From an uncultured bacterium (GTDB taxonomy: Bacteria > Bacillota_I > Bacilli_A > RF39 > UBA660): 64,000 nt of DNA. Shown here one piece after another: positions 15,621 to 59,615 of the stretch (position 1 is the first letter of the stretch; each line of letters opens with the position of its first letter). The position numbers were made by a program, and so were the translations under genes. The DNA is taken from assembly GCA_900314465.1 (NCBI GenBank), contig OMVK01000006.1:87-64086 (forward strand), read 5' to 3'. The notes under the pieces were generated by a model that was not told the DNA's origin, did not search any database, and saw only the letters and a program-made list of their open reading frames with translations.

Positions 15621-15681
15621 TAAATCACATCCAAATATTATTATAAACAAAAACTAGTCTTTCGACTAGTATATATAAAGA

Positions 15682-16023
15682 CTACTTACAATTCCATGGC
15701 GTCAAGATACAATTTTGACACGTTGTAAAATCAGAATTTTGATCTGCATCATTATAAGAATTTACCAAACTAAATATCCATAAAATTATACTTGGTAAGA
15801 AGAATATAACTAAACCAGCAACAATTCTTATTCCAAGTTGTTTAGCAGATTTTCCAATAGCTTTTTCATCATTAGCTACAATAGCCTTACCCATATCAAA
15901 TACACCAAAAATAATAATTAATATAGGCATAAATATTTTAACAATGGTAATTATCCAACCAGCAAATTGTAAAATACTTTTAAATTCATTGCAAAATCCA
16001 GAAACAGTAAAACTAACATCCAT
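15682..16023 (-). CDS. small two-helix membrane protein with Cys-rich C-terminal tail (VirB2/TrbC-like topology)
   Basis: 113 aa. Two hydrophobic helices separated by a charged loop (ANDEKAIGKSAKQLG). C-terminal TTCQNCILTPWNCK. Confidence 0.35.
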   Translation of the reverse strand: MDVSFTVSGFCNEFKSILQFAGWIITIVKIFMPILIIIFGVFDMGKAIVANDEKAIGKSAKQLGIRIVAGLVIFFLPSIILWIFSLVNSYNDADQNSDFTTCQNCILTPWNCK

Positions 16024-16091
16024 AAAACTTTTCTCCTTAACTAATTAAAATTATATGTTTTTTTCTTATTATTGTCAACTATTTTAAGTTG

Positions 16092-17069
16092 TCATTGTTT
16101 ATTGAAACCAAATTTAGCTAAAAAAGCATCAATTTCTGGTATATCAGTATTTCTATCGTTTACTGGTGGAATATTTGAAAATATTTTAGCTTTTGTTTCA
16201 TATTCAAAATCAGGTACTTCTTGTTCATTAACAAGGCTCTTATTCAAAACAACAATATCATTTTTATGATCTAAGAAGGCATTTTTATTTCTTCTTAATA
16301 ACTTAGTTAACATTAAATAAGATGGTTCAACCAAATAAACAATATAATCACAATATTTATCAGCATCACCAAATTCATTTAAATCAATAACTATACAATT
16401 AGCCTTATCATATACTCTTAACTTATTTTGAAGTTCTGTTGTACTCATGATAGAAAAATAATGTTCATCATCATGAAAGAATATTAAATCTTGTTTAAAC
16501 ATCTCAAATCCAACGGCAAAATAACCATTATTATTAAGTTGTCTTACCATCATATTAGTTAAACTTGTAGCACCAGCATGATTAGTCAAATTAGAAAGAC
16601 CGATAATAACTCTTCCACCAACTCTTGGTGTAGCAGTTTGTTCTACTTTCTTTTCTTCAAGAATAGCTTCTTCTTTTTTTTCTTCTTCATCACTCAACAA
16701 TAAGTATTTTACATCATCATATGTATTTGGATGATTAACTAAATAAACAAGTCCTTCATAAGTATTAGTAAAATTATAAAGTCCAAGTTTTACAAGTTGT
16801 GACCTATATAATTTACTATTAACAGTAGGATTATCATTTAGTAATAATATTATTCTACTTGGTTCAATAGCTTTTGTTAAATTACTAATTGTTTCAATAT
16901 TTTCATAATCTTTAATAGATGTAATATCAATAATAATATTTTTAAAATATAAATTAACAAACTTACTTAAAAGTTCTTTTAAATCATATTCACCATCTAC
17001 TCTCTTAATTATATCTATTTGAAGTCTATCAATAATACTTTTATTTTGATTAGCAGTAACAATATTCAT
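16092..17069 (-). CDS. degenerate ParA/MinD-fold protein with N-terminal extra domain (TadZ/CpaE-like candidate)
   Basis: RVIIGLSNLTNHAGATSLTNMMVRQL occupies the deviant Walker A position (KGGVGKT replaced by NHAGATS). Followed by CIVIDLNEFG and DYIVYLVEPS blocks typical of ParA-fold proteins. Confidence 0.4.
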   Translation of the reverse strand: MNIVTANQNKSIIDRLQIDIIKRVDGEYDLKELLSKFVNLYFKNIIIDITSIKDYENIETISNLTKAIEPSRIILLLNDNPTVNSKLYRSQLVKLGLYNFTNTYEGLVYLVNHPNTYDDVKYLLLSDEEEKKEEAILEEKKVEQTATPRVGGRVIIGLSNLTNHAGATSLTNMMVRQLNNNGYFAVGFEMFKQDLIFFHDDEHYFSIMSTTELQNKLRVYDKANCIVIDLNEFGDADKYCDYIVYLVEPSYLMLTKLLRRNKNAFLDHKNDIVVLNKSLVNEQEVPDFEYETKAKIFSNIPPVNDRNTDIPEIDAFLAKFGFNKQ

Positions 17070-17085
17070 AACTTATTCACCCCGA

Positions 17086-17610
17086 TTAAAAATAACTATC
17101 GCTTGGATAATACATTGTAATTGTCTCGCCAGTTACATTAAAATTAGATGTAAGTCCAAGATTTATATTACCTATTTGTAAAGAAAAAAATACAACAACT
17201 TTATAATATGCAGATGACATTGAATTACTTTGTGATGAAAAGTAAGCAGTTACCTTTTGTACACAATAATTATATTTATCATGTTCATTAGGGCTAACCT
17301 TTACATTAGTGCCACTAACTCCAGCATATGGTACTTGTACATTTCCAGAATTACTAACACCTTCAATATTTTTACCAACAAATAAACTACAATTACCCTT
17401 AGAATTATAATTTATTTCACCCATATATGAATTGATGTCATCAACAGCACTATCATTAAAGCCGTTATATTTTTCTATACGTTCAACGATTCCATCTTTT
17501 ATTCTAAACGCTTTAGAATAATTAATAGAAAAAGCTAGGAAACCAGAGAATAATACAATAAAAGTCATAACAATAATTGTAAGCCATGCAGCTCCTATCG
17601 ATTCTCTCAT
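17086..17610 (-). CDS. pilin/pseudopilin-like protein (TadE-like candidate), paralog A
   Basis: N-terminal MRESIGAAWLTIIVMTFIVLFSGFLAFSINYSKAF hydrophobic helix. Shares the R-x-x-I-x-G-x-W...SINY motif with ORF 18007..18501. Confidence 0.35.
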   Translation of the reverse strand: MRESIGAAWLTIIVMTFIVLFSGFLAFSINYSKAFRIKDGIVERIEKYNGFNDSAVDDINSYMGEINYNSKGNCSLFVGKNIEGVSNSGNVQVPYAGVSGTNVKVSPNEHDKYNYCVQKVTAYFSSQSNSMSSAYYKVVVFFSLQIGNINLGLTSNFNVTGETITMYYPSDSYF

Positions 17611-17641
17611 AGTATTATCTCCACTATTATATTATTATATA

Positions 17642-17929
17642 TTAACTACCCTGTTGATTTTGATTGCATTGAATTGGTGATGGGGTTGAGCATTCTGAAC
17701 CAACATCTGATTCTGATCCAGTATTTTTTTGGCTTGGACAATAATAACAAGTAACCATACCATTTTGATTAGTACTAGGGTCACAACCAAAAGCTTGTGA
17801 GCAATAAGTTGATCTCATAATAGTAGCACGAATATTAGGCCAAATTAATGTACTAAATACTACACTAATAGCAGCAATTGCAACAACGGCAACTGCAGTC
17901 ATACTTAATTCACCTGTTGCGTCTTTCAT
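17642..17929 (-). CDS. small pilin-like protein (Flp-like candidate) with Cys-rich C-terminus
   Basis: MKDATGELSMTAVAVVAIAAISVVFSTLIW. The G-E...hydrophobic stretch resembles an Flp/class III signal region. 8 Cys in the 50-aa C-terminal tail. Confidence 0.35.
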   Translation of the reverse strand: MKDATGELSMTAVAVVAIAAISVVFSTLIWPNIRATIMRSTYCSQAFGCDPSTNQNGMVTCYYCPSQKNTGSESDVGSECSTPSPIQCNQNQQGS

Positions 17930-18006
17930 AAATAATCATCTCTCCTTTATCTTATAAAACAATTATATAACTTATAATAACAAATAATCAATATTTTTTT
18001 AAAATA

Positions 18007-18501
18007 TTAGTGTAATGTTACAAAAAAATCATTAGTAACCGGATATAATATTGGATTTGTTTCATCAGATACTCTAAATGTAAATATTTCTCCAAATACA
18101 GGTATAGTAAAGCCAAAGAAATTAGTTATCTTATAATAATAAACAGTATTACCACCTTTAGTAGCATCAGTTCTTACTATGCAATACTTATATCTACCAG
18201 CACCATTTTTTATATCAGGAGTATCTCTATCTTTACTACCAATATAATCGTATGTATGACCATTTATAGTTTCATTACTACAAGTACCTGTAGATTGATA
18301 ACTATAAGAATCAAATATATCATATATTTTTTCTTTTGTATCTTGATTATACCCACTACTAGTTTCAACAGTAGTAGTTATTTTTTGGTTTATTTGATAA
18401 GCATGAGCATAATTAATTGATACAGCTACATAACCAACTAATATAACCGTAAAAATTAAGACCATAGTGTAAACCCAACTACCAGCAATTGCATTTCTCA
18501 T
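18007..18501 (-). CDS. pilin/pseudopilin-like protein (TadE/TadF-like candidate), paralog B
   Basis: MRNAIAGSWVYTMVLIFTVILVGYVAVSINYAHAY N-terminus paralogous to 17086..17610. Confidence 0.35.
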   Translation of the reverse strand: MRNAIAGSWVYTMVLIFTVILVGYVAVSINYAHAYQINQKITTTVETSSGYNQDTKEKIYDIFDSYSYQSTGTCSNETINGHTYDYIGSKDRDTPDIKNGAGRYKYCIVRTDATKGGNTVYYYKITNFFGFTIPVFGEIFTFRVSDETNPILYPVTNDFFVTLH

Positions 18502-18584
18502 ATAATCACCCTACTTTATTACTAATTATACTATTAGAATTAATCTTAAACAATAAAATAAAAGAGTATTTACATACTCCATTA

Positions 18585-19841
18585 TTATTCATATTTATAT
18601 AAATTTCTACTTCTAGTTAAATTTTTTCTAACAAAATATATAATAACAACAAGAACTACTATAACAATAAGTATTATCAAAATTATAATCCATAATCCTG
18701 AAGATTTCTTAATATGTATATTATATGTACATAAAGTGCCATCAGCTGCTTTTATATTAACAGTTACTACACTATTATTTTGAATATTATCATAACCTTT
18801 AACTTCAAATTCTGCATGTAATACATCAGATGGGATTACTTCTAAATTTAATGAATTAGTATTACGACTAACTTTTAAATTGTATTCATAATTATTTTTA
18901 TCAAAATTATCACTAAAACTATCATAATTATCTATTGTAATATTGGCTGCAGTACAATCACTTGAATCCCCATCACTACGATGTATTTTTATTGTTCTAG
19001 TTTTACTTGTACCATCTTCTGCGGTAACAGTTACATTAATTTCAGCATCTTCACCAGTAATGCCTGTATTACCAGTAACATCACAAGTTGCATTACTATC
19101 TTCTGGTTCACAAACAATATCAACATCAGTTATATCTGAAGATATTTCTAGTTGATAAGATTTATTAGAAAAATCAGGAAGTTCCGTATTTTCAAATAAT
19201 AGTTTTTTTATCTTAGTATTACTTGATTTACTTTCAGTGGACTCAGTAGACTCAGTTTGTACAACAGCTCTTTTAGTTTCACCTTGAGTTGTTGCTTCAG
19301 TTCTTTCAATAATTACTCTGGTTGTACCATTTGTTCTTTTTTTCGTAACTATAGTATTTTTAGTTGCATTAGTAACTTGCTTAGTTACTGTAGAATTACC
19401 TCCACCACTACTTTGAGAAGTTGGATTAACAACAGATGCTTGAGTTGTCGCTTTGGTATTTGCACTTGTTACATAAGTAGAACCATCAGATTTTTTATTA
19501 CAATCAACAGTAGTTACTCTTGTACAAAAGTGTTGATTTGCAATATTACATGAACCACTATAAACAGAACATCCATCAGAAGATATTACTTTATATGGGT
19601 CACTATTACCATTATAACAAGCAATACTTCCGATATCTGGGAATAGATTAACAACACTCCAAGTACCACTTTGGCAATGTGCTCTAAAACACTGAGTAAA
19701 CTCTCCAGATCTTGTAAGTGACCCAGTTAAAGCTTTCTTACAATCTGAATAACTGATCTCATTTTGACCAGTAGCACCATAAATAATATTTGGAACCAAT
19801 ACTAAACATAAAATAATTAAAAAAGATAACTTCTTCCTCAT
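18585..19841 (-). CDS. surface protein: signal peptide, Cys-rich domain, Thr-rich linker, cadherin-like beta-sandwich domains, C-terminal TM anchor
   Basis: Signal MRKKLSFLIILCLVLVPNIIYGA. 12 Cys in the first 110 mature residues. EINVTVTAEDGTSKTRTIKIHRS and VNIKAADGTLCTYNIHIKK match the cadherin-like/CHU_C-type motif ...VTA.DG...Y.I.I.R. C-terminal WIIILIILIVIVVLVVIIYFVRK anchor. Confidence 0.5.
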   Translation of the reverse strand: MRKKLSFLIILCLVLVPNIIYGATGQNEISYSDCKKALTGSLTRSGEFTQCFRAHCQSGTWSVVNLFPDIGSIACYNGNSDPYKVISSDGCSVYSGSCNIANQHFCTRVTTVDCNKKSDGSTYVTSANTKATTQASVVNPTSQSSGGGNSTVTKQVTNATKNTIVTKKRTNGTTRVIIERTEATTQGETKRAVVQTESTESTESKSSNTKIKKLLFENTELPDFSNKSYQLEISSDITDVDIVCEPEDSNATCDVTGNTGITGEDAEINVTVTAEDGTSKTRTIKIHRSDGDSSDCTAANITIDNYDSFSDNFDKNNYEYNLKVSRNTNSLNLEVIPSDVLHAEFEVKGYDNIQNNSVVTVNIKAADGTLCTYNIHIKKSSGLWIIILIILIVIVVLVVIIYFVRKNLTRSRNLYKYE

Positions 19842-19911
19842 AAGTTTCACCACAATCATAATATACATTTTAATTATAATAATAATAAACTAATATTTCA
19901 AGAAGTCTTAA

Positions 19912-30311: not shown

Positions 30312-33248
30312 TTATCTTGATCTACCTTGTTCTTCATTATTAGACTTATCATTTAAATAATTACTCATCATTTCAGTAACTTCATCACCATATTTATTTG
30401 AATATGCATACTGATTCATTGTTGATGCAACACGTGTTGCTAATACAGTAGCACTAGCAGCTGATATGATTGTAGTTAACATATCACTTGGTAAACTTGA
30501 TAAAGCAGTTACTTGTTCAGCAGTAAGTCCAGCTAACTCAGTTCCATATTGAACAGCTTGTAATTCAGCTTGATTAGCATTTAAGATAGCATCTGGATGA
30601 CTAACAATATATTCCATAGCTTCTTGTGTTGCATGTAAATCAAATTGTGGATGACTTTGAGCATAAACTTTTAATACATCAAGACCTTCTTGAACAGTTT
30701 CATTAAGAGCTTTTTGTGATTCTTGACTAATAGTAGTTAATTGTTTTAAGGCATCTTGTGCGTTAATTGAACCAGTTGCATAATCAGATGCTGTTTGATT
30801 AATTTGATTATTAACACTATCAAAATTATTATTAAAATATTGATGATTTGCTGGATCCATTGTATGGTAACTATCATTAAATGTCCAGTTGTTACTATCA
30901 AGTGCAGTTCTTTCTTTAACATCAGCTACAGTAAGTGTATCTTGATAAGATTTAGCTTTTTGCCCTTCAGCAAAGACATCTGCTTTACCTTGAAGGTCTT
31001 TACCAATATCATTAGCACGATCAACAGTTTGATTATTTGCAGCATTTATTCTAGCAGCTTCTGCTTGTTGCTGTTGTAGTAGTTGTTTATCAGCTAAATT
31101 AACACGTACAGCATTTACAGCACTAATTGCAGATGAAACTATAGCAATTGTTGTAAATAAATCAGTAAAGAATGGATCATCTCTATAATCTAATTGTTTT
31201 ACTAGAGGTGAATAATATTTTTTACCAGAACTTCTTCTTCCAAAGAAACTATTACTTATTTCTGTATTTTCAGAATATATTTTTTCTTTTTCTACAAAGT
31301 TCTTAACGATACCTTCAGCATCACCATTAGCTCTTGCAGTTTCAAAGCCATTATCAGCTTTAGCTAGTCTTGCTTGTAATTCATTGTCAAAATCATAAGA
31401 CTTTGCAAATCTTCTACCTTGATAATTCATTTTAGTAGAAGTCGCTTTAAAGTCTTCATGCAATCCATGAATACCACTAGAAGCAAGATTATTAGCTTTA
31501 ATTCTTGTATCGTTAATTTCTAATACAATAGATGAAGCATTTTGATATAATTGTGTTCTCTTATTTTGAAGAATATTTTTCTTGTTAGAATCTTTTTCTT
31601 TAGCAATTTGTGAATCTAGTACATCTATTTCTTTTAATAAAACAAATAATTTTTTGTAATCACTAGTAATTACTTCATTATGTTTATCTAACTTATTAGT
31701 TAAATATTCAGATATTTTTGCTTCTATTAAACTATTTATTGAATTATTACTATCAGTTATTAATAAACTACCTTTATATTCATTAGCTAATACTTCTAAT
31801 TCTTCATCAGATAATTCATCTAATCTTCCTTTAATTGTATCAATAACATCTTTCATCTTTTTAGATTTACTACCTAAAGTATGTCTAATTATTGGATAAA
31901 TTAATCTTTGAACTCCCTTCTTAAAAAATCCAACTACATTATAAATCCAATTATCTTCTTTTAATTCTTCTTTAAATTTTTTAGAAACTTTAAGATTTCC
32001 ATAAGTATATTTCTTTCCTGTATTTTTCTTTATATCTAGTCCATCAGTAAGTTTAGCAATAATTCCTTCTACTGAAGGTTTAACCTTAATATTTTTATCT
32101 TCTTTTTTAGGTTCAGGTAATTCTGGAGTTACGTCATCTATTGTCTTTCCAGGTAATCTTGGTATTTCATCACCAATTGTCTTTCCAGGTAATCTTGGTA
32201 TTTCATCTTTATTCTCATTTTTCTCTAAATCAAGTGTTATATATCTTATCTTAACAGTATATCTAGAATAAGGATTTTCATTTTGTCCATCATAGATCTT
32301 TCTTACATTATCTTCAGAAATTTCATAATAATCTTCACCATTTTGTTTTATAATTGTACTTTCATCTCTAGAAATTTTAAATCTATCAAAAACATCTTGC
32401 TTTGCAAAATATTTTTTTGAATTAATATCTTGTAAGAAAACATATTCAGGAATATCGCCTTGATTGTCAACATCATTTTTCTTATTTTCTTCAGGACCCT
32501 TGTTTTCTTCATGAATATGTTCTTGTTCTTTCTTTTTATCATCAGCAGATAAAGCAATTGGAGTAAAAGGTTGTCCATCAATAATTGCTGCTCTTTCAAA
32601 ATCCTCAGTCCCTGGTATATAGCCTTCTGCTACATAATCATCATATGCTTCAGGATTCATATGATATTCTTCTGCAGTTGGTACATGTTCAGTATTTTCT
32701 TTAGCTTCTTTACGTCTATTCTCTTCTTGAACTAATGCATCATATTCTTTTTCTAAATCACTATTTTCTTCAAGACCGTTTTCTTGATGTGCTAGAAAAT
32801 TATATAAATCATTAATTTGTGATTCTAATTCTTCATCACTCAATTTTGAAGAATCAAATGGCAATTCACTATCTTTTTTTTCTTTTTCCTGTTCACTAAC
32901 ATGTGTTTCTTCATGTTTAACCATTTGTTTTAATTCATCTAATGTAACAGGTTCTTTTTGATTTAAACGATCAACACTATAATCCCTATCAACAATAGCA
33001 CCCTTAGTTGAATCAGCACTAAAAGTAAATAAATCACTATTAATTAAATCATCAAATCTTAAATAATCAACATGATTCTCACCAACATTTTTTTGATCAA
33101 TTAAATCTTCACAATATTTAATTTCACTTTCAACTCTTTTAGCATCATCAGGTGTTTTAACTTCATTTATTCTTATTAAATATAAATTATATAAAACATC
33201 TATTTCTGCCATAATTGAATCTTTAATATTATCATTCATATTTTTCAC
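30312..33248 (-). CDS. large (978 aa) multidomain protein, function unknown; acidic coiled-coil N-terminal half, tandem 12-aa repeat, compositionally distinct Q/A/T-rich C-terminal region
   Basis: Tandem DEIPRLPGKTIG/DEIPRLPGKTID repeat from an exact 36-nt duplication near 32140-32215. C-terminal 330 aa are enriched in Ala/Gln/Thr, and the DNA there is visibly less AT-rich. Confidence 0.45.
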   Translation of the reverse strand: MKNMNDNIKDSIMAEIDVLYNLYLIRINEVKTPDDAKRVESEIKYCEDLIDQKNVGENHVDYLRFDDLINSDLFTFSADSTKGAIVDRDYSVDRLNQKEPVTLDELKQMVKHEETHVSEQEKEKKDSELPFDSSKLSDEELESQINDLYNFLAHQENGLEENSDLEKEYDALVQEENRRKEAKENTEHVPTAEEYHMNPEAYDDYVAEGYIPGTEDFERAAIIDGQPFTPIALSADDKKKEQEHIHEENKGPEENKKNDVDNQGDIPEYVFLQDINSKKYFAKQDVFDRFKISRDESTIIKQNGEDYYEISEDNVRKIYDGQNENPYSRYTVKIRYITLDLEKNENKDEIPRLPGKTIGDEIPRLPGKTIDDVTPELPEPKKEDKNIKVKPSVEGIIAKLTDGLDIKKNTGKKYTYGNLKVSKKFKEELKEDNWIYNVVGFFKKGVQRLIYPIIRHTLGSKSKKMKDVIDTIKGRLDELSDEELEVLANEYKGSLLITDSNNSINSLIEAKISEYLTNKLDKHNEVITSDYKKLFVLLKEIDVLDSQIAKEKDSNKKNILQNKRTQLYQNASSIVLEINDTRIKANNLASSGIHGLHEDFKATSTKMNYQGRRFAKSYDFDNELQARLAKADNGFETARANGDAEGIVKNFVEKEKIYSENTEISNSFFGRRSSGKKYYSPLVKQLDYRDDPFFTDLFTTIAIVSSAISAVNAVRVNLADKQLLQQQQAEAARINAANNQTVDRANDIGKDLQGKADVFAEGQKAKSYQDTLTVADVKERTALDSNNWTFNDSYHTMDPANHQYFNNNFDSVNNQINQTASDYATGSINAQDALKQLTTISQESQKALNETVQEGLDVLKVYAQSHPQFDLHATQEAMEYIVSHPDAILNANQAELQAVQYGTELAGLTAEQVTALSSLPSDMLTTIISAASATVLATRVASTMNQYAYSNKYGDEVTEMMSNYLNDKSNNEEQGRSR

Positions 33249-41237: not shown

Positions 41238-42116
41238 TTAATGTATAAGTAATGATATAAAACTCATTACATTATTCAAAGAATGCACAGAAGCATTCAA
41301 AATTAAATTATTATTCTTAACATAAACATATGCAAGAACCATACCTGCACTTATATAACTAATCGAACCAATTAATTCAGATAACTTAAATTCCTGTATT
41401 AGTGTATTAAGTACATATATATTACTTAATATTAAATAAGAAATAAGACAGGTGATTAATATTGCACACCCAACATAATATACTTTTAACTTTTTACTTA
41501 TATTCATATTAACAATATAGTCTATCATTATACCCATAATAAGTATACTTATCAAAGTTAATATATGTTGGGATATATGTGCAATACCAAAGATTAATCC
41601 ACTTATAGAAATAAATACCCCATTATTCTTAATTGACTCTCTAATAGATACTCTAAATACCATTTCTTCAATCAATGGTGCTATCACACAAGCATCTATA
41701 AATATAAGTCGTGGTGCACTTTTAAACATCTCTTCAATAGAAATTTGATTATCTATAGCTTGATATTCAATACCAAACATATTATAAATAAATACTACTA
41801 AATAACTAACAAAGAAATTAACTATTGAAAATAATATATAATATAGTAATATACTTTCTAATAACTTAAATATATTATTAATACTTACTTGATAATCTTT
41901 AAATATCTTTTTTCTAAATATAATACAAAATACTATAAAACTAATTAAATCAAGTAATAACTCTATTACTACAACATCATATGTATCACTAGAATTAATA
42001 CTTAAATTAGTTATCTTATTTATTAATTTATAAGATATACTAGGAAGTATTAAATATATTAAAAGTATTAATATAGTCTTAATTGGTTTAATAAAATTAT
42101 TAATTGTTTTACTCAT
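41238..42116 (-). CDS. CPBP family intramembrane metalloprotease (CAAX protease / Abi)
   Basis: Motif 1 EEMVFRVSIRE. Motif 2 FGIAH. 7-8 TM helices. Start set at MSKTINN (4-nt overlap with the upstream stop). Confidence 0.6.
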   Translation of the reverse strand: MSKTINNFIKPIKTILILLIYLILPSISYKLINKITNLSINSSDTYDVVVIELLLDLISFIVFCIIFRKKIFKDYQVSINNIFKLLESILLYYILFSIVNFFVSYLVVFIYNMFGIEYQAIDNQISIEEMFKSAPRLIFIDACVIAPLIEEMVFRVSIRESIKNNGVFISISGLIFGIAHISQHILTLISILIMGIMIDYIVNMNISKKLKVYYVGCAILITCLISYLILSNIYVLNTLIQEFKLSELIGSISYISAGMVLAYVYVKNNNLILNASVHSLNNVMSFISLLIH

Positions 42117-42790
42117 AATACTCCTACTAAATAAATACCACAACATATATATAAAGCATATGCAATATATACTATCCATATATTATATGTAGCTTTATAC
42201 ATATATGTAAGTAATATTATTATAATAGATGGTATTAAAGACATAAAGAATGCATTTTCAAAAGAAGTATTTAAAGAAAGTCCATATAAGAACCCATAAA
42301 TAATTCCTGAAAATAAAGATGCACTATTTATATTCTTAATAATATTTGAAAAACCAATTGGAAATATTACTACCAATAGGAATGGTTTTAATATGACATC
42401 TATAATTAAATTAAGTGCTGAAGTTAATATAAATGTTGTATTAAAATAATTAATAAAAGTATTACTAACAGGATGTCCTAGATATTCTAAGACTCTGTGA
42501 CATAATAGATTTACAAATACAAGTAATACAAAAGCTCCGAGAGAAAACACGACATTAACAAGTTTACTCTTACCCATTTTATGATTAGAACTATTAATAG
42601 TTCCATGATATAAGAGATAAGATATAAAGCATATTAAAGCATATTTTACTGTATTCATAATAATATATGCATTACCACCAAAATTAAGACCTATTTTCCC
42701 TAAAACAAAGAAAAAATAATTATCTATAAAATAGTAGCATAGTATGGCAATTATTAGTTTAATAACACCCTGTAAGCTTTCTTTATTCAT
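42113..42790 (-). CDS. polytopic membrane protein, possibly a degenerate CPBP-like paralog
   Basis: 6-7 TM helices. Lacks the EExxxR motif. Confidence 0.3.
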   Translation of the reverse strand: MNKESLQGVIKLIIAILCYYFIDNYFFFVLGKIGLNFGGNAYIIMNTVKYALICFISYLLYHGTINSSNHKMGKSKLVNVVFSLGAFVLLVFVNLLCHRVLEYLGHPVSNTFINYFNTTFILTSALNLIIDVILKPFLLVVIFPIGFSNIIKNINSASLFSGIIYGFLYGLSLNTSFENAFFMSLIPSIIIILLTYMYKATYNIWIVYIAYALYICCGIYLVGVL

Positions 42791-49841: not shown

Positions 49842-51035
49842 TTAATATCTTGAATAGAACCAAACACCCATTGATGGAAGTCCAACAAGTTTTCTTGGAT
49901 CTATATAATGAGAAACAAATGAAGACCAAGCAACATAATCTCTTCCATACCAACCAGTTGCAAGTCCTAAATGTAAGTGTGCACCTGTTGAACAAGTATC
50001 CCATCCACCATTTGATTTCAAAGTAAATCCAGCACCACCTACAGCACCAATGACAGTATGATTAGTAACTTTCTGTCCTATACTAACATTAACTTGTGAT
50101 AAATGATAGTAAAAACTTGTATATTTAATACCATTAATAGTATGGTAAATAAATACCATATTACCACCACAATTAGATTTATAAATTATTTTACCTACTA
50201 CACCATTAGCAATTGAATAGACATTAGTACCCATTGAATTACCACCAATATCATCACCTGAATGGTATTCAACTTTACCACTAATTGGACTTACACGATA
50301 ACTAAAATACGATGTAATAACACCTCTAGTTAATGGTCTTATAAATCTTGTATCACCCATTACACTCGCACATGAATCTAGTGAATCAGAATCTTTACAA
50401 CCAAGACTAACATAATAATTAATTAAATTTTGTGTAGAACTTATCTGATCACTTATAGATGCAGCTTCTTCATCAAGTGAATCAATTTCATCACCTAAAG
50501 AATCAATAGATTCAGATAAACTATTAATATCACTTTCAAGTTGTACTTGTCTATTAGCAATATAAGATTTTAATTCATCATTTTTTTGTATTTTATTTTT
50601 ATAATCATTAATCTTACCATTAATATATTCCATTATTTCATCAGATACAGCATATCTATATACTAAATCTTCATAAGATGTTGAATCAAAAATATATTCA
50701 AGATATAAATTATCACCAGAAGATAACTGATAAGCTTGCATTAATTTTTCAAGTTCTTCTTTACTATCTTCAATTTCTTTAGTAAGTTCAGCTGATTCAT
50801 TTGTTGCATCAATAACTTTTTGTTGGTTATTAGTTATTTCATTTTGTTTATTAACTATACTTTGTTTATCAGAATTAATTTCTGATTGAGCATTTTGCTG
50901 TTTATTTTGATTAGATGAATATTGAGCCTTATAATTTGCAAGCTCAGTCTTTAACTCTCCTAAAGTTTTAGCATCTATAGTTAATGGTAATAATAGTATG
51001 CAAAATAATATTATATATTTACTTATATTATTCAT
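49842..51035 (-). CDS. M23 family metallopeptidase with N-terminal coiled-coil (EnvC/FtsEX-associated hydrolase-like)
   Basis: Signal peptide. About 230-aa coiled-coil. C-terminal M23 domain (HSGDDIGG...HLHLG). GGAGG RBS. ATG overlaps the ftsX stop (TAATG). Confidence 0.75.
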   Translation of the reverse strand: MNNISKYIILFCILLLPLTIDAKTLGELKTELANYKAQYSSNQNKQQNAQSEINSDKQSIVNKQNEITNNQQKVIDATNESAELTKEIEDSKEELEKLMQAYQLSSGDNLYLEYIFDSTSYEDLVYRYAVSDEIMEYINGKINDYKNKIQKNDELKSYIANRQVQLESDINSLSESIDSLGDEIDSLDEEAASISDQISSTQNLINYYVSLGCKDSDSLDSCASVMGDTRFIRPLTRGVITSYFSYRVSPISGKVEYHSGDDIGGNSMGTNVYSIANGVVGKIIYKSNCGGNMVFIYHTINGIKYTSFYYHLSQVNVSIGQKVTNHTVIGAVGGAGFTLKSNGGWDTCSTGAHLHLGLATGWYGRDYVAWSSFVSHYIDPRKLVGLPSMGVWFYSRY

Positions 51036-51931
51036 TAGATCTTTAAATACCTCCTTACAGCATTCAAGGATCCAAACACACCAACTATTGCACCAACACA
51101 TAATAAAACTAAGCTAGTTGTATAAACGACTTCATTTGGATTTACTAAAACAACAAGGGAACTAAATAAAGTACCACCTACATAATCATAAAAGAATTGA
51201 TAACCAAATATAGTTATTAATATAGGTATAATTGAACCAATAACACCGAGAATTAAACCCTCAATAACAAATGGAAGTTTAATAACTGTATTAGAAGTAC
51301 CAACAAGTCTCATAATACTTACTTCCTGTCTTCTTGAATATATAGTTAATTTAATAGTATTACCAATTAAAAAGAAAGTTACAAATATTAAAGCTACTAC
51401 TACAGCATAAGATACTGTTCTGATAACATCAAACATAGATACTAACTTACTAACTAAAGATTCACCATATTTAACTTCAGAAACATGTTCAAACCCTTTA
51501 ATAGTATTAGCAGTTTCATCAATTTTTTTAACATCATTTACTTTAACAACATAAGTACTCTTTAAAGGATTTTCATCTAAAGTATCTAAAACATTTTTCA
51601 TACTTTCATCTTGAGATATTTCATTTTTAATATCATCTTTTGAATTAAATTCAACATTATTAGTATTAACATTATCAATAGACTTAATTTGTTCACCTAA
51701 TGTTTCTATATCACTATCACTTGCATCTTTATCAATAAAAACAATAATAGTTAATACATCTTCGATATGTTGAGTTATAGCTTTTACATTAAAAGTAAAA
51801 AGGACTGCTATACCTACAATTAAAAGAGTAATTGCAGCACATGAAATAGAAGCAATACTTAAAGAAAAATTTCGAAATACACTATGAAATGCATCTTTAA
51901 TACTTCTACCAATAATTCTAATTATCCTCAT
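51035..51931 (-). CDS. ftsX: cell division permease-like protein FtsX
   Basis: N-terminal TM, extracellular loop domain, three C-terminal TM helices. Directly downstream of ftsE with overlap. Confidence 0.85.
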   Translation of the reverse strand: MRIIRIIGRSIKDAFHSVFRNFSLSIASISCAAITLLIVGIAVLFTFNVKAITQHIEDVLTIIVFIDKDASDSDIETLGEQIKSIDNVNTNNVEFNSKDDIKNEISQDESMKNVLDTLDENPLKSTYVVKVNDVKKIDETANTIKGFEHVSEVKYGESLVSKLVSMFDVIRTVSYAVVVALIFVTFFLIGNTIKLTIYSRRQEVSIMRLVGTSNTVIKLPFVIEGLILGVIGSIIPILITIFGYQFFYDYVGGTLFSSLVVLVNPNEVVYTTSLVLLCVGAIVGVFGSLNAVRRYLKI

Positions 51932-53858: not shown

Positions 53859-56654
53859 TTAATTTTCACTAAAGAAATCATCATAATATTCATCATCATT
53901 ATCTTTCTTTGGTTTAATTACTTTAGCATCACTGTCTGCTTTAATAATATTACTAGGACTAACAACTGGTTTATTAACATTAGTACTATTAGCTTTAATT
54001 AAACTTTCAAAGTTATTAGTATTTTGATTACTTAGACTATTAGTATTATTACTTGGAGTATCATCAAGTACATCTAAGTCATCATCATCTTCATCTTTAC
54101 TAGTTTCTTCTTTAATTGGTTTATTATCATTTTTAAATAAATCAGCAAAATTATTAGATTTATTCTCTTCAACAGTTTTAGTACCATCTTTACCTTTAAC
54201 ATAATCTTGATAATATGTCTTAGTAGGATCTTCAATACCAGAAAGTCTACTAGTATCAACATTATTATTAGTTAAATCTACATCACTAAGTTTATTTAAA
54301 TTATCAGGTGTAACATGTATAGTAGGTTTCTTAGATTCATGGTGTTCATATAAATCTATATTATTATCAAAATTATTTGTAATTATTGGTTTATTATTAG
54401 TAGTTTTCTTTTCTTTTTTATCATCATCGAAACTTATCTTATTACCTGAAATACTATTAAAATCAATTAAATCTCCAGCATCAATATCATCATCTGGATT
54501 TTTATCATCTTCATTTGATTTATTATCTTTACTTGAAAAATTAACTTCTTTACTATCTTCTTTAGGAGTATTAAATGGATTTAAAGGAATATTTTTATTA
54601 CCTATTCCATCAGTTTGTTCCTTTTTATCTTTCTTTTCTTCTTCTTCAAGTCTAGCAATTTCTTTATCAATATTTTTAATGACAGCATCTAAATTAAATG
54701 ATGGTTTAGGTTTAGTAGGTTTATCTTTAATACCATTATAAAAATCATCAAAAGATGGAATATTTTTATTAAATGGATTACTAGAACTACTATTTAAATT
54801 ATTCATACCACCAGATAAAATATCTGCAAAACTTGGTTTGTTTGATTCTACAAATGGTGATTGACTAAAACCACCTGTACCAGAGCCAAATCTACCACTA
54901 CCAAATGGTGAATCATTCTTTCTAGAACGAGCACGAACATCAACAAATTTACGAATATCAAATAATTTAATATCTCTTGATTCTCTTGTTGGAAGTTCAC
55001 ATGGTGCTGTCCATTCTTTATCACCCCAGTCAACATTATAACTAGGTCTTAATTTAGTTCTAAATGGGAACATACGATTTCTAATAATAATTACTTCATT
55101 AGGTTGTAACTTTTGTAAATCAGATACAGTAATTAATGGAACAGAAGCAGTCTTATCATCTTTTTTACTCTTAACCTCACCACATAGTTTACTTATTTCT
55201 TCAAGTGCTGAAAGTTCTGTAGTAAGTAAGTACATTAAGTTAGCACAGTTTGATCTAATTGTTTGTGATTCTTCTTTACCATAAACTTCATCAAGCTGAG
55301 CATAGTTCTGTATGATAAATGTAAATCTAATTGCACGTGAACGAGCAGCAGTAACCATTGTTGTAATATCTTTAATCGCAGGCATATTAGCAAACTCATC
55401 AAGTAAGTAATTAGTTCTAACTGGAAGTTTACTACCTGGACTATTCTGAGCAACATCAATTAATGTTTCATAAGATTGTTTAATAAATATAGATGCAAGA
55501 GCATGATAAGTTGTCTTTTCATCCTGTACGATAATAAATACTGCAGTTTTTTGTTTACCAATGGATTCCATATCAAAATCAGAAAATGAAAGCATTTCTG
55601 CTAAATTCTTACGTGCAGCAAATATACGTATTTTTTGTCTAAATGTTGAAAGTATTGAACCCTTCGTATCAGATGGTGCTGTAATAGTATTATTTGCAAA
55701 TACATAAGCTGGTGAACTCTCACCCTTCATCTTAAAATATTCTTTAATATATGTACTATTACCACCGAATTTATCTTCACCAACAGTAGTCATATAGTTA
55801 ACTGATGAAATATTACACTCTTCCTCAGTAGCATCATCCATTAAACCTAATATATTACCAGCAAGATAATCGGCTGCTGAATCTTGCCAGAATGGATCGG
55901 CTTGACTATTTTTATCTTTCATAATATTAGATGCAACATCATCTACTAGTTCTTGTGCTTTATCAGTATTTCCAGCTTTATATAATCTGTATGGAATTGT
56001 TAAAGGATTCCATGAATTACCCTGTTGTGGATTACGGAAATTTAAAACAATAATATTATAACCTTTATGTTTTAAGAAAGTACCATGATTACGATATATT
56101 TCACCCTTAGGATCGGTAAATATCATAGATTCTCCTGCTTTTGCAAGAGAATAAGTCATTGGATCAATTACAGCTGTTGTTTTACCAGAACCAGTAACAC
56201 CGACAACTAATGTGTGGTTTTCACTATTATCTACCCACATATTTTTACCATCATTAATAAATACGACACCACCAGCTGTAGCATCTTCATCTTGGACGCC
56301 AACCTTAACAATTTTAAATGCCTTCTTCATTTCTTTTTCTTCAAGCCATCTTGAATATCCATCTGATGCATGTTCACCAATTTTTAATCCAGGTCCACCA
56401 GAAACACGTTCAAAAATAGTTGATGATACACTAGCAAAAATAAATATTAATACGCCAAAAAATACAAGTAATGTTGCTGGTAAATACTTAAAAGAGAATC
56501 CTTCAATCGGATTTAAGCCATACAACTCACCATCGTTAATTACCGAAAACAAATTAAGAACAGCAATTGAACAAAAATATAATAAAACAATACAAAATAA
56601 AACAAATAAGGTAAAGTCTTTAGAAGTAACCTTAATCTTCAATTTAAGCTTCAT
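53859..56654 (-). CDS. type IV secretion coupling protein (VirD4/TraG family T4CP) with long disordered C-terminal tail
   Basis: Two N-terminal TM helices. Walker A VGVTGSGKTT with downstream TDPKGE hallmark of TraG/VirD4. Walker B-like FIIVQDE...LLDEFAN. Last ~330 aa are N/D/K/S/G-rich and end DDEYYDDFFSEN. Confidence 0.85.
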   Translation of the reverse strand: MKLKLKIKVTSKDFTLFVLFCIVLLYFCSIAVLNLFSVINDGELYGLNPIEGFSFKYLPATLLVFFGVLIFIFASVSSTIFERVSGGPGLKIGEHASDGYSRWLEEKEMKKAFKIVKVGVQDEDATAGGVVFINDGKNMWVDNSENHTLVVGVTGSGKTTAVIDPMTYSLAKAGESMIFTDPKGEIYRNHGTFLKHKGYNIIVLNFRNPQQGNSWNPLTIPYRLYKAGNTDKAQELVDDVASNIMKDKNSQADPFWQDSAADYLAGNILGLMDDATEEECNISSVNYMTTVGEDKFGGNSTYIKEYFKMKGESSPAYVFANNTITAPSDTKGSILSTFRQKIRIFAARKNLAEMLSFSDFDMESIGKQKTAVFIIVQDEKTTYHALASIFIKQSYETLIDVAQNSPGSKLPVRTNYLLDEFANMPAIKDITTMVTAARSRAIRFTFIIQNYAQLDEVYGKEESQTIRSNCANLMYLLTTELSALEEISKLCGEVKSKKDDKTASVPLITVSDLQKLQPNEVIIIRNRMFPFRTKLRPSYNVDWGDKEWTAPCELPTRESRDIKLFDIRKFVDVRARSRKNDSPFGSGRFGSGTGGFSQSPFVESNKPSFADILSGGMNNLNSSSSNPFNKNIPSFDDFYNGIKDKPTKPKPSFNLDAVIKNIDKEIARLEEEEKKDKKEQTDGIGNKNIPLNPFNTPKEDSKEVNFSSKDNKSNEDDKNPDDDIDAGDLIDFNSISGNKISFDDDKKEKKTTNNKPIITNNFDNNIDLYEHHESKKPTIHVTPDNLNKLSDVDLTNNNVDTSRLSGIEDPTKTYYQDYVKGKDGTKTVEENKSNNFADLFKNDNKPIKEETSKDEDDDDLDVLDDTPSNNTNSLSNQNTNNFESLIKANSTNVNKPVVSPSNIIKADSDAKVIKPKKDNDDEYYDDFFSEN

Positions 56655-56704
56655 TTGTCTTCCCCTTTTCTAAAAAACATTATAATATAAATATAATATT
56701 TTTA

Positions 56705-57442
56705 CTATACAAACTTATTACCATTTTTAATCTTTATCCAAATAAAAACAATTAAAGAAATAACAATAATAAGTATTATAATTAATATTAAATAAAATTT
56801 ATTAAAACTACTATCATCACCAAGTAGACCACTACCACTATTTTTATTCTTATCACTAATAATTGTCGTTGTTGTAGTTGTGCTTGTTGTAGTTTCTATT
56901 ATTAAATTACCATTTTCATCTATTATTGCTCTTTGCTCTTCACTTGTATTTTCTTCACTTACTTTACTAGTAGTACTTGTAGTTACTGTCGTACTATTTG
57001 TACTTGAGTTATTATTACTTGAGCTATTACTACCTGAAATACTTGAACCATTACGTTCTTTAATAAAATCACTAGCAGAAATTGTTATTCTCAAACTACG
57101 ATTATTATTATATTCATCACCAAATATACCACTAACTTTTAATTTACCAAACTTATCAGGATTACCATCAGTAAAAGTACATATTCCATAATAAAACTTA
57201 AGGTCACCTTTAGAAACTTCAGGAATAGATGCTCCAAAACTATTTTCTTTTCTTAATGTATAACTAACAAGACTATTACTACCATCATAAAAATATATAT
57301 CTATTCTATCTATATTAAATCCAGAAGCACTCTGTAATATATTAGTTGAAACATTAACAGAATTATAATTATCAGCTTTAGCTGAAAAAGGTAGTGCGAC
57401 AAAAAATAGCATAATAAATAATATAATTTTGTATTTATTCTT
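56705..57442 (-). CDS. conjugation-cluster surface protein (signal peptide, Ser/Thr/Asn-rich stalk, C-terminal TM anchor)
   Basis: Signal MKNKYKIILFIMLFFVALPFSAKA. SSNNNSSTNSTTVTTSTTS low complexity. C-terminal FYLILIIILIIVISLIVFIWIKIK. Confidence 0.4.
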   Translation of the reverse strand, partial: KNKYKIILFIMLFFVALPFSAKADNYNSVNVSTNILQSASGFNIDRIDIYFYDGSNSLVSYTLRKENSFGASIPEVSKGDLKFYYGICTFTDGNPDKFGKLKVSGIFGDEYNNNRSLRITISASDFIKERNGSSISGSNSSSNNNSSTNSTTVTTSTTSKVSEENTSEEQRAIIDENGNLIIETTTSTTTTTTIISDKNKNSGSGLLGDDSSFNKFYLILIIILIIVISLIVFIWIKIKNGNKFV

Positions 57443-57665
57443 CATTCCCAGCATTATCCTCATTTCCAACATTAGCACCAACTGTCCAATCAATTTCATT
57501 TCCATAGTCATCTGTTCCAAGAGTTTCAGTTGAAAAATTTTTTAATGAAGAACTGATTTCATTATTTTTTCTTTTATTATTTCCATAAGCTAATGCAATA
57601 ATTAAATAAATAGAAAAAATAATAACAATTATAATTAGAAATTTAATAATTCCTTTATTCATTTT
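57435..57665 (-). CDS. small single-TM protein in conjugation cluster
   Basis: MNKGIIKFLIIIVIIFSIYLIIALAYGNNKRK..., 76 aa. Overlaps neighbours by a few nt (operon packing). Confidence 0.3.
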   Translation of the reverse strand, partial: KMNKGIIKFLIIIVIIFSIYLIIALAYGNNKRKNNEISSSLKNFSTETLGTDDYGNEIDWTVGANVGNEDNAGNEE

Positions 57666-57681
57666 TATCACTCCCGTAATT

Positions 57682-59592: not shown

Positions 59593-59615
59593 ATTAAACC
59601 TTCTTTCTAATATAT

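Follow-up and report, generated by a model that had tools for sequence, protein, structure and literature searches.

The question raised by this locus is what a run of six genes, flanked by dnaB/dnaI-like genes on one side and murJ on the other, might build in an uncultured bacterium represented here by a window of 64 kb (the whole stretch of DNA that was analysed). The original prediction saw a candidate for an undescribed surface-appendage locus with a non-canonical arrangement. All six of its ORFs are present where it placed them, all on the minus strand:

18585-19868, minus strand: 427-aa ORF
18007-18501, minus strand: 164-aa ORF
17642-17929, minus strand: 95-aa ORF
17086-17610, minus strand: 174-aa ORF
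16092-17069, minus strand: 325-aa ORF
15682-16023, minus strand: 113-aa ORF

The arrangement is indeed non-canonical; the locus is not self-contained. Our analysis suggests that, within a divergent pilus system of the Tad-like (type IVc-like) kind, the block probably supplies the filament side and a cytoplasmic organiser. The larger, lineage-wide cluster also holds cpaB, a CpaF-like ATPase gene and two membrane protein genes, and it is split in the lineage of the window. Such a Tad-type system would be kept by hundreds of uncultured species in a large lineage of small-genome gut Bacilli, usually fused to a conjugation-like secretion system. The HMM tests originally proposed for it (TadE, Flp_Fap and ParA/CpaE) all fail; the support we present is drawn from what surrounds the genes in relatives and from structure prediction.

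The six-gene block is not a chance arrangement. Our synteny set comprised 83 loci from species-level genomes, and the proposed check on block conservation was positive, with the identical six-gene order found in 16 of 57 related species-level loci that have at least 6 kb of upstream flank. Every locus scored has a pilin-like gene (80/80) and 66 of 69 have an Flp-like one; in 68 of 76, a member of the 113-aa family adjoins the 325-aa gene. The block genes are under purifying selection: dN/dS is 0.05-0.08 for the 164-aa (0.079), 174-aa and 325-aa genes, the same as for neighbouring housekeeping genes, 0.19 for the 427-aa gene and 0.43 for the 95-aa gene, in which all change lies in the tail. The reported Cys richness is also genuine, given that the top three of the 62 window genes belong to the block (6.3% Cys in the 95-aa, 3.5% in the 113-aa and 3.0% in the 427-aa protein, versus a window average of 1.02%).

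The three small proteins are pilin-like in layout, as predicted. The 95-aa protein, an Flp-like major-subunit candidate, has the leader MKDATG, a hydrophobic helix and a hypervariable tail with 6 Cys, not the 8 first counted. Compared to its closest relative, the first 48 residues differ only at positions 26 and 44, and the tail is variable with its Cys kept. The Cys count is even in 92/92 unique sequences of this family, compared to 38% in the cytoplasmic 325-aa family. The family reads MK[ED]ATG-EL[NS]MT, which puts a Glu at +1 and a Thr at +5 of the putative cleavage site, and lacks the G/XXXXEY processing motif. Its size and N-terminal helix, as well as the place of its gene after tadC in relatives, fit an Flp prepilin, and the gene is tandemly duplicated, with up to three copies in loci L025, L063 and L084. 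We propose that this protein would be the major subunit, with the conserved hydrophobic helix forming the fibre core and the fast-evolving tail exposed at the surface and knotted by disulfides.

The 164-aa and 174-aa proteins are paralogs, as first suggested (28% identity, each matching the other's family), and the N-terminal motif that they have in common is kept family-wide. Both are minor-pilin candidates, the 164-aa protein as a TadE/TadF analogue, and they may prime or cap the fibre in the manner of TadE/TadF. The 174-aa protein has the leader MRESIG and conserved Cys at 74 and 116, and its predicted structure consists of a helix at 3-47, further helices at 53-66 and 74-84, and a five-stranded sheet. 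This pilin-like structure gave weak matches, among them the T2SS pseudopilins EpsI, XcpV and GspJ. A six-residue leader pattern, M-[KR]-[ED]-[AS]-x-G, is common to the N-terminal logos of the 95-aa and 164/174-aa families, suggesting that one peptidase serves both; the Com/type IVa class III leader (G followed by F/M-T-L-x-E) is absent from these logos.

The 325-aa protein has the TadZ/CpaE architecture with a dead P-loop that had been proposed for it. In the predicted structure, a receiver-like N-domain (1-125) is joined by a helical linker to an atypical ParA/MinD-like domain (154-320) of the SIMIBI-class fold, the combination seen in TadZ/CpaE. The NHAGATS sequence sits at the exact P-loop position, between the strand at 154-160 and the helix at 167-180 of the model, and the P-loop as a whole (NLTNHAGATS) is lysine-free. 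Among 27 aligned family members, H164 and G166 are invariant and none has a Lys at the P-loop. The family lacks both lysines of the deviant Walker A motif of ParA/MinD ATPases, KGGxGK[ST]. A profile search of 1.84 billion proteins with this family found only 459 relatives and did not reach the ParA/MinD superfamily. TadZ has been described as having an atypical Walker A motif and a role as a localisation hub (PMC6668835). We hypothesize that the TadZ/CpaE-like pseudo-ATPase recruits or positions the machine.

The 427-aa protein has a signal peptide, a Cys-containing N-domain, a Thr/Ser/Asn-rich linker, two cadherin-like beta-sandwich domains and a TM anchor, and its C-terminal end consists of the TM helix followed by RKNLTRSRNLYKYE, with the cytoplasmic end YKYE conserved in the family. 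The cadherin-like assignment was borne out by PF12733, which matches two stretches (E = 5.9e-7; 30.3 bits versus a cut-off of 24.2) and is matched by 10/10 family members. The N-domain, reported to hold 12 Cys, has 8 conserved ones; of the 13 Cys in total, the signal peptide accounts for one and the cadherin-like part for four. Only the clade of the window has this family, and the position of its gene is constant, with dnaI on one side and the first pilin-like gene on the other. This product is probably a membrane-anchored, Cys-rich, cadherin-like surface protein, co-transcribed with the pilin-like genes and possibly an adhesin.

Several sequence features that could serve transcription lie in and around the block:

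19873..19901, minus strand: promoter-like site TTGAAA-17-TATAAT (11/12), in the 43-bp gap from dnaI to the 427-aa gene
17962..17991, minus strand: promoter-like site scoring 10/12, immediately before the 95-aa gene
16050..16078, minus strand: perfect sigma-70-type promoter consensus TTGACA-17-TATAAT (12/12), in the gap that separates the 325-aa gene from the 113-aa gene
15653..15670, minus strand: terminator-like hairpin between the 113-aa gene and murJ, the only one in the 13.8-22.3 kb region

These sites bracket the block. In total, the region has no more promoter-like sites than its shuffled versions, and thus only their position and score are suggestive.

The original prediction reported no secretion ATPase or platform protein in the window, which holds for the Tad type (ATPase, platform and also CpaB/RcpC genes are absent from the 64 kb), but the window does contain secretion ATPase genes of a different kind, VirB4-like and VirD4-type. 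In relatives, an ATPase gene lies upstream in 38 of the 57 loci with enough flank. The order in locus L004 is DUF5411, CpaB/RcpC, a T2SSE ATPase and two membrane proteins, followed by homologues of the block (44% identity for the 95-aa protein, 37% and 29% for the 174/164-aa proteins, 35% for the 325-aa protein and 30% for the 113-aa protein). Within the window's own clade, locus L023 reads cpaB-cpaB-ATPase-tadB-tadC directly upstream of E-flp-E-Z-M-murJ. Among PDB entries, the ATPase of the relatives is closest to CpaF (E = 2.9e-17), with archaeal GspE/FlaI and VirB11 ranking behind; its best NCBIfam match is VirB11, with all matches below cut-off, and close homologues are named CpaF family by NCBI and JGI. 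The CpaB/RcpC proteins reach PF16976 at E = 3e-6 (27.5 bits, just under the cut-off of 28.8) and TIGR03177 at E = 2.5e-10, also below cut-off. The membrane proteins of ~298 and ~262 aa match no T2SSF model of Pfam or NCBIfam (0/44), and hhalign detected no relation between the two; their position, size and polytopic nature fit TadB/TadC. A separate cpaB-cpaB-tadA-tadB-tadC operon (L086, in whose precomputed Pfam hits RcpC is unmarked) was present in two sequencing samples that both also contain a six-gene block of the window type (L001), and NCBI assigns the proteins of both to an Erysipelotrichales bacterium. We infer that the motor in this lineage, comprising the CpaF-like ATPase, the two platform-like membrane proteins and CpaB, is encoded at another place in the genome, in an operon of its own.

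The 113-aa protein stands somewhat apart. Its VirB2-like appearance was supported, but a VirB4/VirB6/VirD4 secretion module is a more probable home for the gene than the pilin block in which it had been placed. The alignment shows two hydrophobic helices joined by a Lys/Arg-rich loop, with Cys11 before helix 1 and C102, C105 and C112 after helix 2. Among the small members of the family, 15 of 45 match the T4SS pilin model PF18895 (best E = 4e-4), as do 4 of 14 large ones (best E = 8e-5) and the L004 homologue (E = 0.0068), always weakly and below the gathering score. The protein of the window weakly matches NF045849, the Mbov_0395 pilin-like family (E = 0.11), and a profile search of the PDB returned nothing relevant. 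In relatives, the family places a two-helix hairpin beside VirB4/VirB6/VirB3, and TrbL_4 (VirB6-like), PrgI-like and VirB4-like genes follow within 10 kb in 29 of 52 loci. The module adjoins the gene in most relatives and lies 34-48 kb away in the window (38-48 kb counted from the 113-aa gene):

63210..64000, minus strand: VirB4-like ATPase, C-terminal part (Pfam P-loop_TraG, AAA_10), running off the right window end
60655..63192, minus strand: 845-aa Peptidase_M23 protein, candidate cell-wall hydrolase of the T4SS-like module
59616..60637, minus strand: 175-aa and 164-aa proteins, after the M23 protein as in L013
57682..59592, minus strand: 636-aa protein with a Peptidase_C39_2 domain match
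53859..56654, minus strand: 931-aa VirD4/TraG-type coupling protein (Pfam T4SS-DNA_transf, E = 2e-51)

The VirB4-like protein is the orthologue of a 594-aa gene product encoded downstream of the pilin block in relatives (phmmer E = 2.8e-124) and is no more than 34% identical to VirB4/TraE from conjugative plasmids of Gram-positive bacteria. Orthologues of the VirD4-type gene are found beside virB4-like in L031 and beside the M genes in L074. The 113-aa product would serve the secretion module as its VirB2-like pilin; its gene has a 12/12 promoter-like site of its own and a terminator-like hairpin.

We considered that the Tad-like and VirB4/VirB6/VirD4 genes could together encode one composite apparatus for contact-dependent transfer of DNA or protein, which we regard as possible although not likely. 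Here a type IV-like filament would make or retract cell contact, the VirB2-like protein and T4SS channel would carry out transfer, and the six genes would be part of a conjugation-like or epibiosis-like system instead of a separate adhesion pilus. In 23 species-level genomes, the genes for the ATPase, the TadZ-like protein and VirB4 all point the same way inside a stretch of 10.5-17 kb, despite divergence of the TadZ-like proteins to 44% identity. The 113-aa gene keeps its place beside the TadZ-like gene even in the window's clade, where the modules on both sides have moved, and the window keeps VirB4, the M23- and C39-type hydrolases and VirD4, with no relaxase noticed beside them. The T4SS and type IV pili of Patescibacteria offer a close parallel (bioRxiv 10.1101/2025.01.22.634366). 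However, adjacency is not function, neither virB4 nor murJ follows the block in 8/52 loci, and the three parts are separated in the window's clade, which is easier to understand if they work independently. The T4SS matches are also of the usual kind for conjugative elements of Gram-positive bacteria, and the module could thus have come from an element integrated long ago.

An unlikely reading is that no filament is formed, and that these lineage-specific bitopic membrane proteins make up a short pseudopilus or envelope complex, for example one for DNA uptake or secretion across the wall like Com or T2SS pseudopili, or have an envelope role suggested by dnaI and murJ. The pilin HMMs find no match among the pilin-like proteins (for the Flp model, none in 45 sequences of the 95-aa family), the structural matches are weak and include pseudopilins, and a motif scan of 4160 ORFs from the window and L001-L085 found no GxGD[..]K-type membrane protein that could be an A24 prepilin peptidase. 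Some bacteria are known to use Tad pili for DNA uptake, according to work cited in one study (PMC11680825). The dnaI/murJ neighbourhood is, however, specific to one clade, with Tad and T4SS neighbours in most relatives, and the Flp-like gene is fast-evolving and tandemly duplicated with a Cys-scaffolded variable tail, which suits a subunit that is abundant and exposed better than a pseudopilus that is buried. That the block is a decaying remnant, orphaned and no longer functional since its motor genes moved or were lost, would account for their absence from the 64-kb window but is very improbable given the six intact ORFs in 16 species-level loci with the window-type upstream arrangement, the housekeeping-like dN/dS of 0.05-0.19, the strong promoter-like sites and the abundance of ATPase homologues (67-89% identity) in the same kind of samples. 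The LPXTG sorting signal of sortase-assembled Gram-positive pili is absent from all six proteins, and no sortase was called among the flanking genes of related loci.

The gene set of the relatives matches Tad/Flp (type IVc) systems, including monoderm ones (Bifidobacterium; Eubacterium rectale TadZ, 3fkq), and Caulobacter CpaF: a CpaB/RcpC-like protein, a CpaF-like ATPase, two polytopic membrane proteins, a subunit of Flp size, two proteins of TadE/TadF size that begin with a hydrophobic helix, and a protein combining receiver and ParA/MinD domains as TadZ/CpaE does. Unlike in those systems, the Flp_Fap, TadE (PF07811) and T2SSF models find no match, the leader is M-K-[ED]-A-T-G followed by E-L-[NS]-M-T and not G/XXXXEY, the subunit has a 45-60-residue tail with 2-8 Cys, the TadZ-like P-loop is lysine-free, the motif scan found no A24 peptidase nearby, and the locus is split in the window's lineage and usually fused to a T4SS-like module. 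Compared to the SIMIBI proteins ParA, MinD, FleN and BcsQ, the 325-aa family lacks both lysines and has an invariant His-Ala-Gly-Ala-Thr-Ser instead. A Tad-like cluster with unrecognisable pilins has been reported from TANB77, also an uncultured, reduced-genome gut Firmicute lineage, but of the class Clostridia and with different protein families (Nat Commun 2024, PMC11680825). Its CpaB, TadZ/CpaE, TadA and TadB/C were recognised mainly by structure, with the TadZ/CpaE genes preceding the ATPase gene, and are followed by several 140-240-aa one-TM proteins called pilins from context only; the passages searched mention neither a T4SS module nor a Flp-like subunit rich in Cys nor a common leader of the MKEATG type. 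Patescibacteria (CPR) are reported to carry a monoderm-type T4SS with VirB2-like PF18895 pilins, mostly without a relaxase, and to need type IV pili for host attachment (bioRxiv 10.1101/2025.01.22.634366). Shared with them are reduced genomes, a chromosomal monoderm (MPF-FATA) T4SS with VirB4, VirB6 and PrgI/VirB3-like proteins, and small two-helix PF18895-like pilins, often in several copies. The phylum is different, the PF18895 matches here are weak (best E = 4e-4 in small members), and the T4SS is physically fused to the Tad-like cluster, a fusion that the passages searched in the preprint do not mention. Finally, the module resembles Mycoplasma ICE genes (Mbov_0395, Mbov_0396 and the VirB4 Mbov_0397): the 113-aa family weakly matches the Mbov_0395 pilin-like model, and the VirB4 model of Mbov_0397 is matched, over its N-terminal part, by a 181-aa protein whose gene precedes virB4 in relatives (E = 5e-15), all far below curated cut-offs. 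No transposase, integrase or element end was noticed in passing. Unlike in those elements, the genes described here lie in conserved chromosomal synteny across hundreds of species.

The six-gene block at 15682-19868 is a fragment of a larger Tad-like cluster that adjoins a T4SS-like module. The original prediction, that the locus is pilus-related, non-canonical and encodes a TadZ-like protein, largely stood; its proposal of an autonomous new appendage system did not. In the best-supported reading, the block is the pilin/TadZ part of a divergent Tad-like system, to which it would contribute the major subunit (the 95-aa Flp-like family), two minor pilins (the E family, 164 and 174 aa) and a TadZ-like organizer (the Z family, 325 aa), with a lineage-specific cadherin-like surface protein (427 aa) presumably co-transcribed with the pilin/TadZ genes. 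The sixth gene, which belongs to the two-helix M family (113 aa), is more probably the VirB2-like pilin of the neighboring T4SS-type module. The window is ~25% G+C, with nearly all genes on the minus strand and a negative GC skew throughout. All six open reading frames were found exactly where they had been reported, and the block and its surroundings are as follows, with neighbors named from precomputed Pfam hits of orthologous loci:

15682-19868, minus strand: six-gene block, encoding in transcription order proteins of 427, 164, 95, 174, 325 and 113 aa
Upstream of the block: DnaB_2/DnaD-type gene and dnaI-like gene
Immediately 5' of the 427-aa gene: promoter-like site, 11/12 match
5' of the 95-aa gene: promoter-like site, 10/12 match
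Immediately 5' of the 113-aa gene: promoter-like site, perfect 12/12 match
Between the 113-aa gene and murJ: terminator-like hairpin, the sole one in 13.8-22.3 kb
Downstream of the block: murJ

The two best promoter-like matches within 13.8-22.3 kb both lie in intergenic gaps of the block; given that the total of such sites was not above that of shuffled sequence, their placement alone is suggestive.

Relatives of the Z protein place the block in its wider context. Its 271 close relatives carry no assigned names and all come from uncultured Bacilli or Erysipelotrichales MAGs. When one genome per species was scanned, relatives were located in 361 genomes, gut MAGs labeled Bacilli, Mollicutes, Tenericutes or Firmicutes, which we infer to be the RF39-type lineage; two Z-carrying genomes are on ~1.2-Mb contigs, one of them titled circular. 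We mapped the gene order across 83 loci. The commonest order begins with a Cys-rich anchored protein, a ~1000-aa secreted protein, DUF5411, cpaB and a T2SSE ATPase and continues through two membrane proteins (~298 and ~262 aa), one to three Flp-like genes, one or two E genes, Z and M. It then proceeds to larger M-domain proteins, TrbL_4 (VirB6-like), a ~105-aa PrgI-like protein, a ~181-aa protein matching the N-terminal region of a Mycoplasma ICE VirB4 model, and a 594-aa VirB4-like ATPase, ending with an M23 peptidase or VirD4. The ATPase was upstream of the block in 38 of the 57 loci with enough flank, and virB4 was downstream in 29/52. In 23 genomes, among which the Z protein has diverged to 44% identity, the ATPase, Z and virB4 genes are co-directional within 10.5 to 17 kb.

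Several features of these loci were observed alongside the gene order. VirB4 is seemingly split in locus L068 (15248-17577) and 28 other loci, where the ~181-aa protein, which aligns to positions 98-276 of the Mycoplasma ICE model, is followed by the separate 594-aa ATPase, with a one-base overlap in L068. Most relatives have secreted Cys-rich proteins ahead of the motor genes (as in L004, 1150-5341, and many further loci): 5' of DUF5411 are two C-terminally anchored proteins of ~215-240 aa and a larger one of ~950-1260 aa, all without a Pfam match, and this set holds the position of the cadherin-like protein in the window's clade. In the near-complete genome of L084 (DAJPHG010000001.1, 4606-25568 of 1,191,766), the entire Tad-like plus T4SS-like supercluster falls in the first 26 kb of the contig; should the contig begin at the replication origin, this would recall the T4SS reported near the origin in Patescibacteria. 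L056 and L060 have a second Tad locus, of the canonical type, that follows their divergent Flp-like/E/Z genes a few kb downstream (13786-18636 in L056), with an Flp bearing G/QALVEY, a TadE-like protein, a 482-aa TadA, tadB/tadC-sized genes and a MinD-like protein of 263 aa in which KGGVGKTT is intact; the canonical and divergent systems are therefore coexisting, distinct kinds.

The Tad-like cluster is split in the window's lineage. Within this clade (Z proteins 46-69% identical to that of the window), the genes typically run dnaB, dnaI, cadherin-like, E, Flp-like, E, Z, M and murJ; this window-type arrangement was present in 16 of the 57 loci with enough upstream flank. Intermediate states occur in the same clade, with cpaB-cpaB-ATPase-tadB-tadC directly 5' of E-Flp-E-Z-M-murJ in L023 and the VirB4 module directly after M in L013 and L026. 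The L023 ATPase has abundant homologues at 67-89% identity, one of which (L086) is encoded in a separate cpaB-cpaB-tadA-tadB-tadC operon amid housekeeping genes. This operon and a window-type block (L001) were found in the same two sequencing samples, and NCBI names a protein of each as from an Erysipelotrichales bacterium. No Tad-type motor genes were present within the 64-kb window. Among solved structures the ATPase is closest to the Tad motor CpaF, with archaeal GspE, FlaI and VirB11 ranking behind, and its homologues are named CpaF family by NCBI and JGI; NCBIfam puts it nearest VirB11, with every match below cut-off. The two platform-position membrane proteins of the relatives were not recognizable as T2SSF by Pfam or NCBIfam, and hhalign did not relate them to each other.

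The T4SS-like module is at the right end of the window and comprises the following:

53859-64000, minus strand: T4SS-like module
63210-64000, minus strand: VirB4-like gene, C-terminal part, truncated by the end of the window (E 2.8e-124 against the gene in relatives)
Within 53859-64000, minus strand: M23 peptidase, 845 aa
Within 53859-64000, minus strand: 175-aa and 164-aa proteins, arranged as in L013
Within 53859-64000, minus strand: Peptidase_C39_2 protein, 636 aa
Within 53859-64000, minus strand: 271-aa protein, no Pfam hit
53859-56654, minus strand: VirD4 coupling protein, 931 aa, followed by RmuC

A passing inspection of the module annotations in 53859-64000 revealed no relaxase. A PcsB-like peptidoglycan hydrolase (49842-51101; coiled-coil domain plus Peptidase_M23) is distinct from the M23 protein of the module, and a 978-aa open reading frame at 30312-33248 has no Pfam match at E <= 0.001. 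We considered that the Tad-like and T4SS-like parts could form one composite nanomachine, fixed in the chromosome across this large gut lineage, for contact-dependent exchange of DNA or protein with other cells, in which a Tad-like filament of previously unrecognized pilins (whose leader would be of a new type and whose hypervariable tails would be disulfide-knotted) is joined to a monoderm-type T4SS. The fusion is conserved across deep divergence and the M gene stays beside Z, as this reading would have it; however, the three parts are readily separated in the window's own clade, and we regard a single machine as a tentative and rather unlikely proposal.

The assignment of the block to a divergent Tad-like system draws in part on the signatures of its protein families. 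The first 11 residues of the Flp-like proteins are almost invariant, M-K-[ED]-A-T-G-E-L-[NS]-M-T, across 92 unique sequences, and a hydrophobic helix follows. Beyond residue 40 the tail is hypervariable in sequence and length, and the number of tail cysteines in this set was 0, 2, 4, 6 or 8 and never odd. The E family begins M-[RK]-E-[SA]-I-G, and comparison of the two starts therefore yields one pattern, M-[KR]-[ED]-[AS]-x-G, at positions 1-6 of otherwise unrelated neighbors. A shared leader of class III type would be expected to have this appearance, and we infer that cleavage would follow Gly6; the pattern differs from the Flp/TadE leader signature G/XXXXEY. A regex scan of 4160 open reading frames from the window and loci L001-L085 returned no A24 peptidase motif. 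Genes for a Metallophos phosphoesterase and for an Rce1-like CPBP intramembrane protease form a divergently oriented pair that adjoins the motor operon in one clade, that of the window, and the pilin/Z operon in a second clade; the pair was seen in L086 (6706-8224), in L023 (1087-2904) and upstream of the Flp-like genes in L050, L056, L058, L060 and L077, and a more distant Rce1-like gene (313 aa) is in the window at 41238-42179. The CPBP protease could serve as a lead, as a candidate leader or tail peptidase; it was dropped as the missing leader peptidase, and its adjacency in two clades may be inherited synteny.

The predicted Cys richness was confirmed, with the 95-aa (6.3%), 113-aa (3.5%) and 427-aa (3.0%) proteins ranking as the top three among 62 genes (window mean, 1.02%), and the exact counts were revised from 8 to 6 Cys in the 95-aa protein and from 12 to 8 conserved Cys in the N-domain of the 427-aa protein. 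Even Cys counts predominated in the E family (85%), the M family (76%) and the anchored Cys-rich proteins (92%) compared to the cytoplasmic Z family (38%), which supports extracellular disulfides. In the M family, the Cys preceding helix 1 is invariant and one following helix 2 is nearly so, and we speculate that the two ends of the protein might be disulfide-tied if both face outward. The cytoplasmic tail of the cadherin-like protein (18585-19868) ends in a YKYE conserved in >=80% of 19 orthologues, which suggests a cytoplasmic partner. At the P-loop position of the Z family (strand 154-160 to helix 167-180) is L-T-N-H-A-G-A-T-S, with His164 and Gly166 invariant and the lysine absent. TadZ itself has been described as an atypical, poorly hydrolyzing member that acts as a recruitment hub (PMC6668835); the 325-aa protein departs further from an ATPase and, judging from these residues, is probably not one at all.

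We calculated dN/dS between the window and its closest available relative, L089, in which neighboring genes are 90-96% identical. The values were 0.049 and 0.079 for the 174-aa and 164-aa E genes, 0.19 for both the cadherin-like and M genes, and 0.43 for the Flp-like gene, compared to 0.045-0.074 for the neighbors RNase J, dnaB and murJ. The Flp-like proteins are 66% identical; residues 1-48 differ at two positions (26 and 44), and all other changes are in the tail, with the Cys scaffold retained. The block is therefore functional, and a pseudogenized remnant was dropped as an explanation given these dN/dS values. On this pattern of substitution, the Flp-like subunit behaves like an exposed, diversifying surface protein. 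Tandem Flp-like genes, two or three with identical N-terminal halves and different Cys-scaffolded tails, were observed in L025 (8702-9463), L063 (263-1226) and L084 (8185-9026), in an arrangement reminiscent of pilin antigenic variation.

Five of the six block proteins were unrecognized by Pfam, NCBIfam and PHROGs, the cadherin-like domain of the 427-aa protein being the sole match. The TadE and Flp models by which the original prediction was to be checked matched none of 150 family members scanned singly (60 E, 45 Flp-like and 45 M). Just one signal recurred, in that 15 of the 45 M proteins weakly matched PF18895 (T4SS_pilin; best E, 4e-4), and a few M proteins weakly matched a pilin-like family of Mycoplasma ICEs. 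When PDB sequences were searched with profiles of the 325-aa, 174-aa and 113-aa families, the matches were chance ones alone (rhodopsin and designed repeats, for example), and the fold match of the predicted structures of the pilin-like proteins to pilins was weak. A comparison of the Flp-like, E, DUF5411, M, tadB and tadC families by hhalign gave nothing significant, the E to Flp-like alignment being limited to the N-terminal leader and helix (29% probability). The Z profile recovered just 459 relatives in all from 1.84 billion representative proteins, and thus the family is closed and ParA/MinD is not reached by sequence. The TadZ-like protein had no tblastn match in 72,556 plasmids, which argues against a plasmid origin; a phage origin was dropped following a PHROGs scan of the six proteins, and sortase and Com pili were dropped given that their motifs were absent.

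The carriers, never yet cultured, are common inhabitants of the human, mouse, rabbit and ruminant gut. Their genomes are very small (~1.2 Mb), yet 20-30 kb is spent on this machinery, with a core that evolves as slowly as replication genes do; this investment and slow evolution imply an important function. The named fiber subunit, minor pilins and organizer are concrete targets for studying how the carriers attach to, or exchange with, hosts and microbes. Current pilin and platform HMMs miss this whole branch of Tad-like systems, and surveys of type IV filaments therefore under-count them. We did not find the present system described in the literature on RF39 with pili or T4SS. One report describes a Tad-like cluster with unrecognizable pilins in TANB77, an uncultured gut clade (PMC11680825), and another describes, in Patescibacteria, a monoderm-type T4SS that is chromosomal, has PF18895 pilins and in most cases lacks a relaxase, as well as a dependence on type IV pili (bioRxiv 10.1101/2025.01.22.634366). 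Should the T4SS link prove functional, it would provide a bacterial case in which a conjugation-type channel and a type IV filament work as one unit, and a composite machine, if true, would hint at uncultured bacteria that are attached to, or exchanging with, partner cells. The VirB2-like pilins of its monoderm-type T4SS would be unusual for Gram-positives, and such a machine would parallel the Ups-pilus/Ced pair of Sulfolobus or the pilus-plus-T4SS dependence of epibiotic Patescibacteria.
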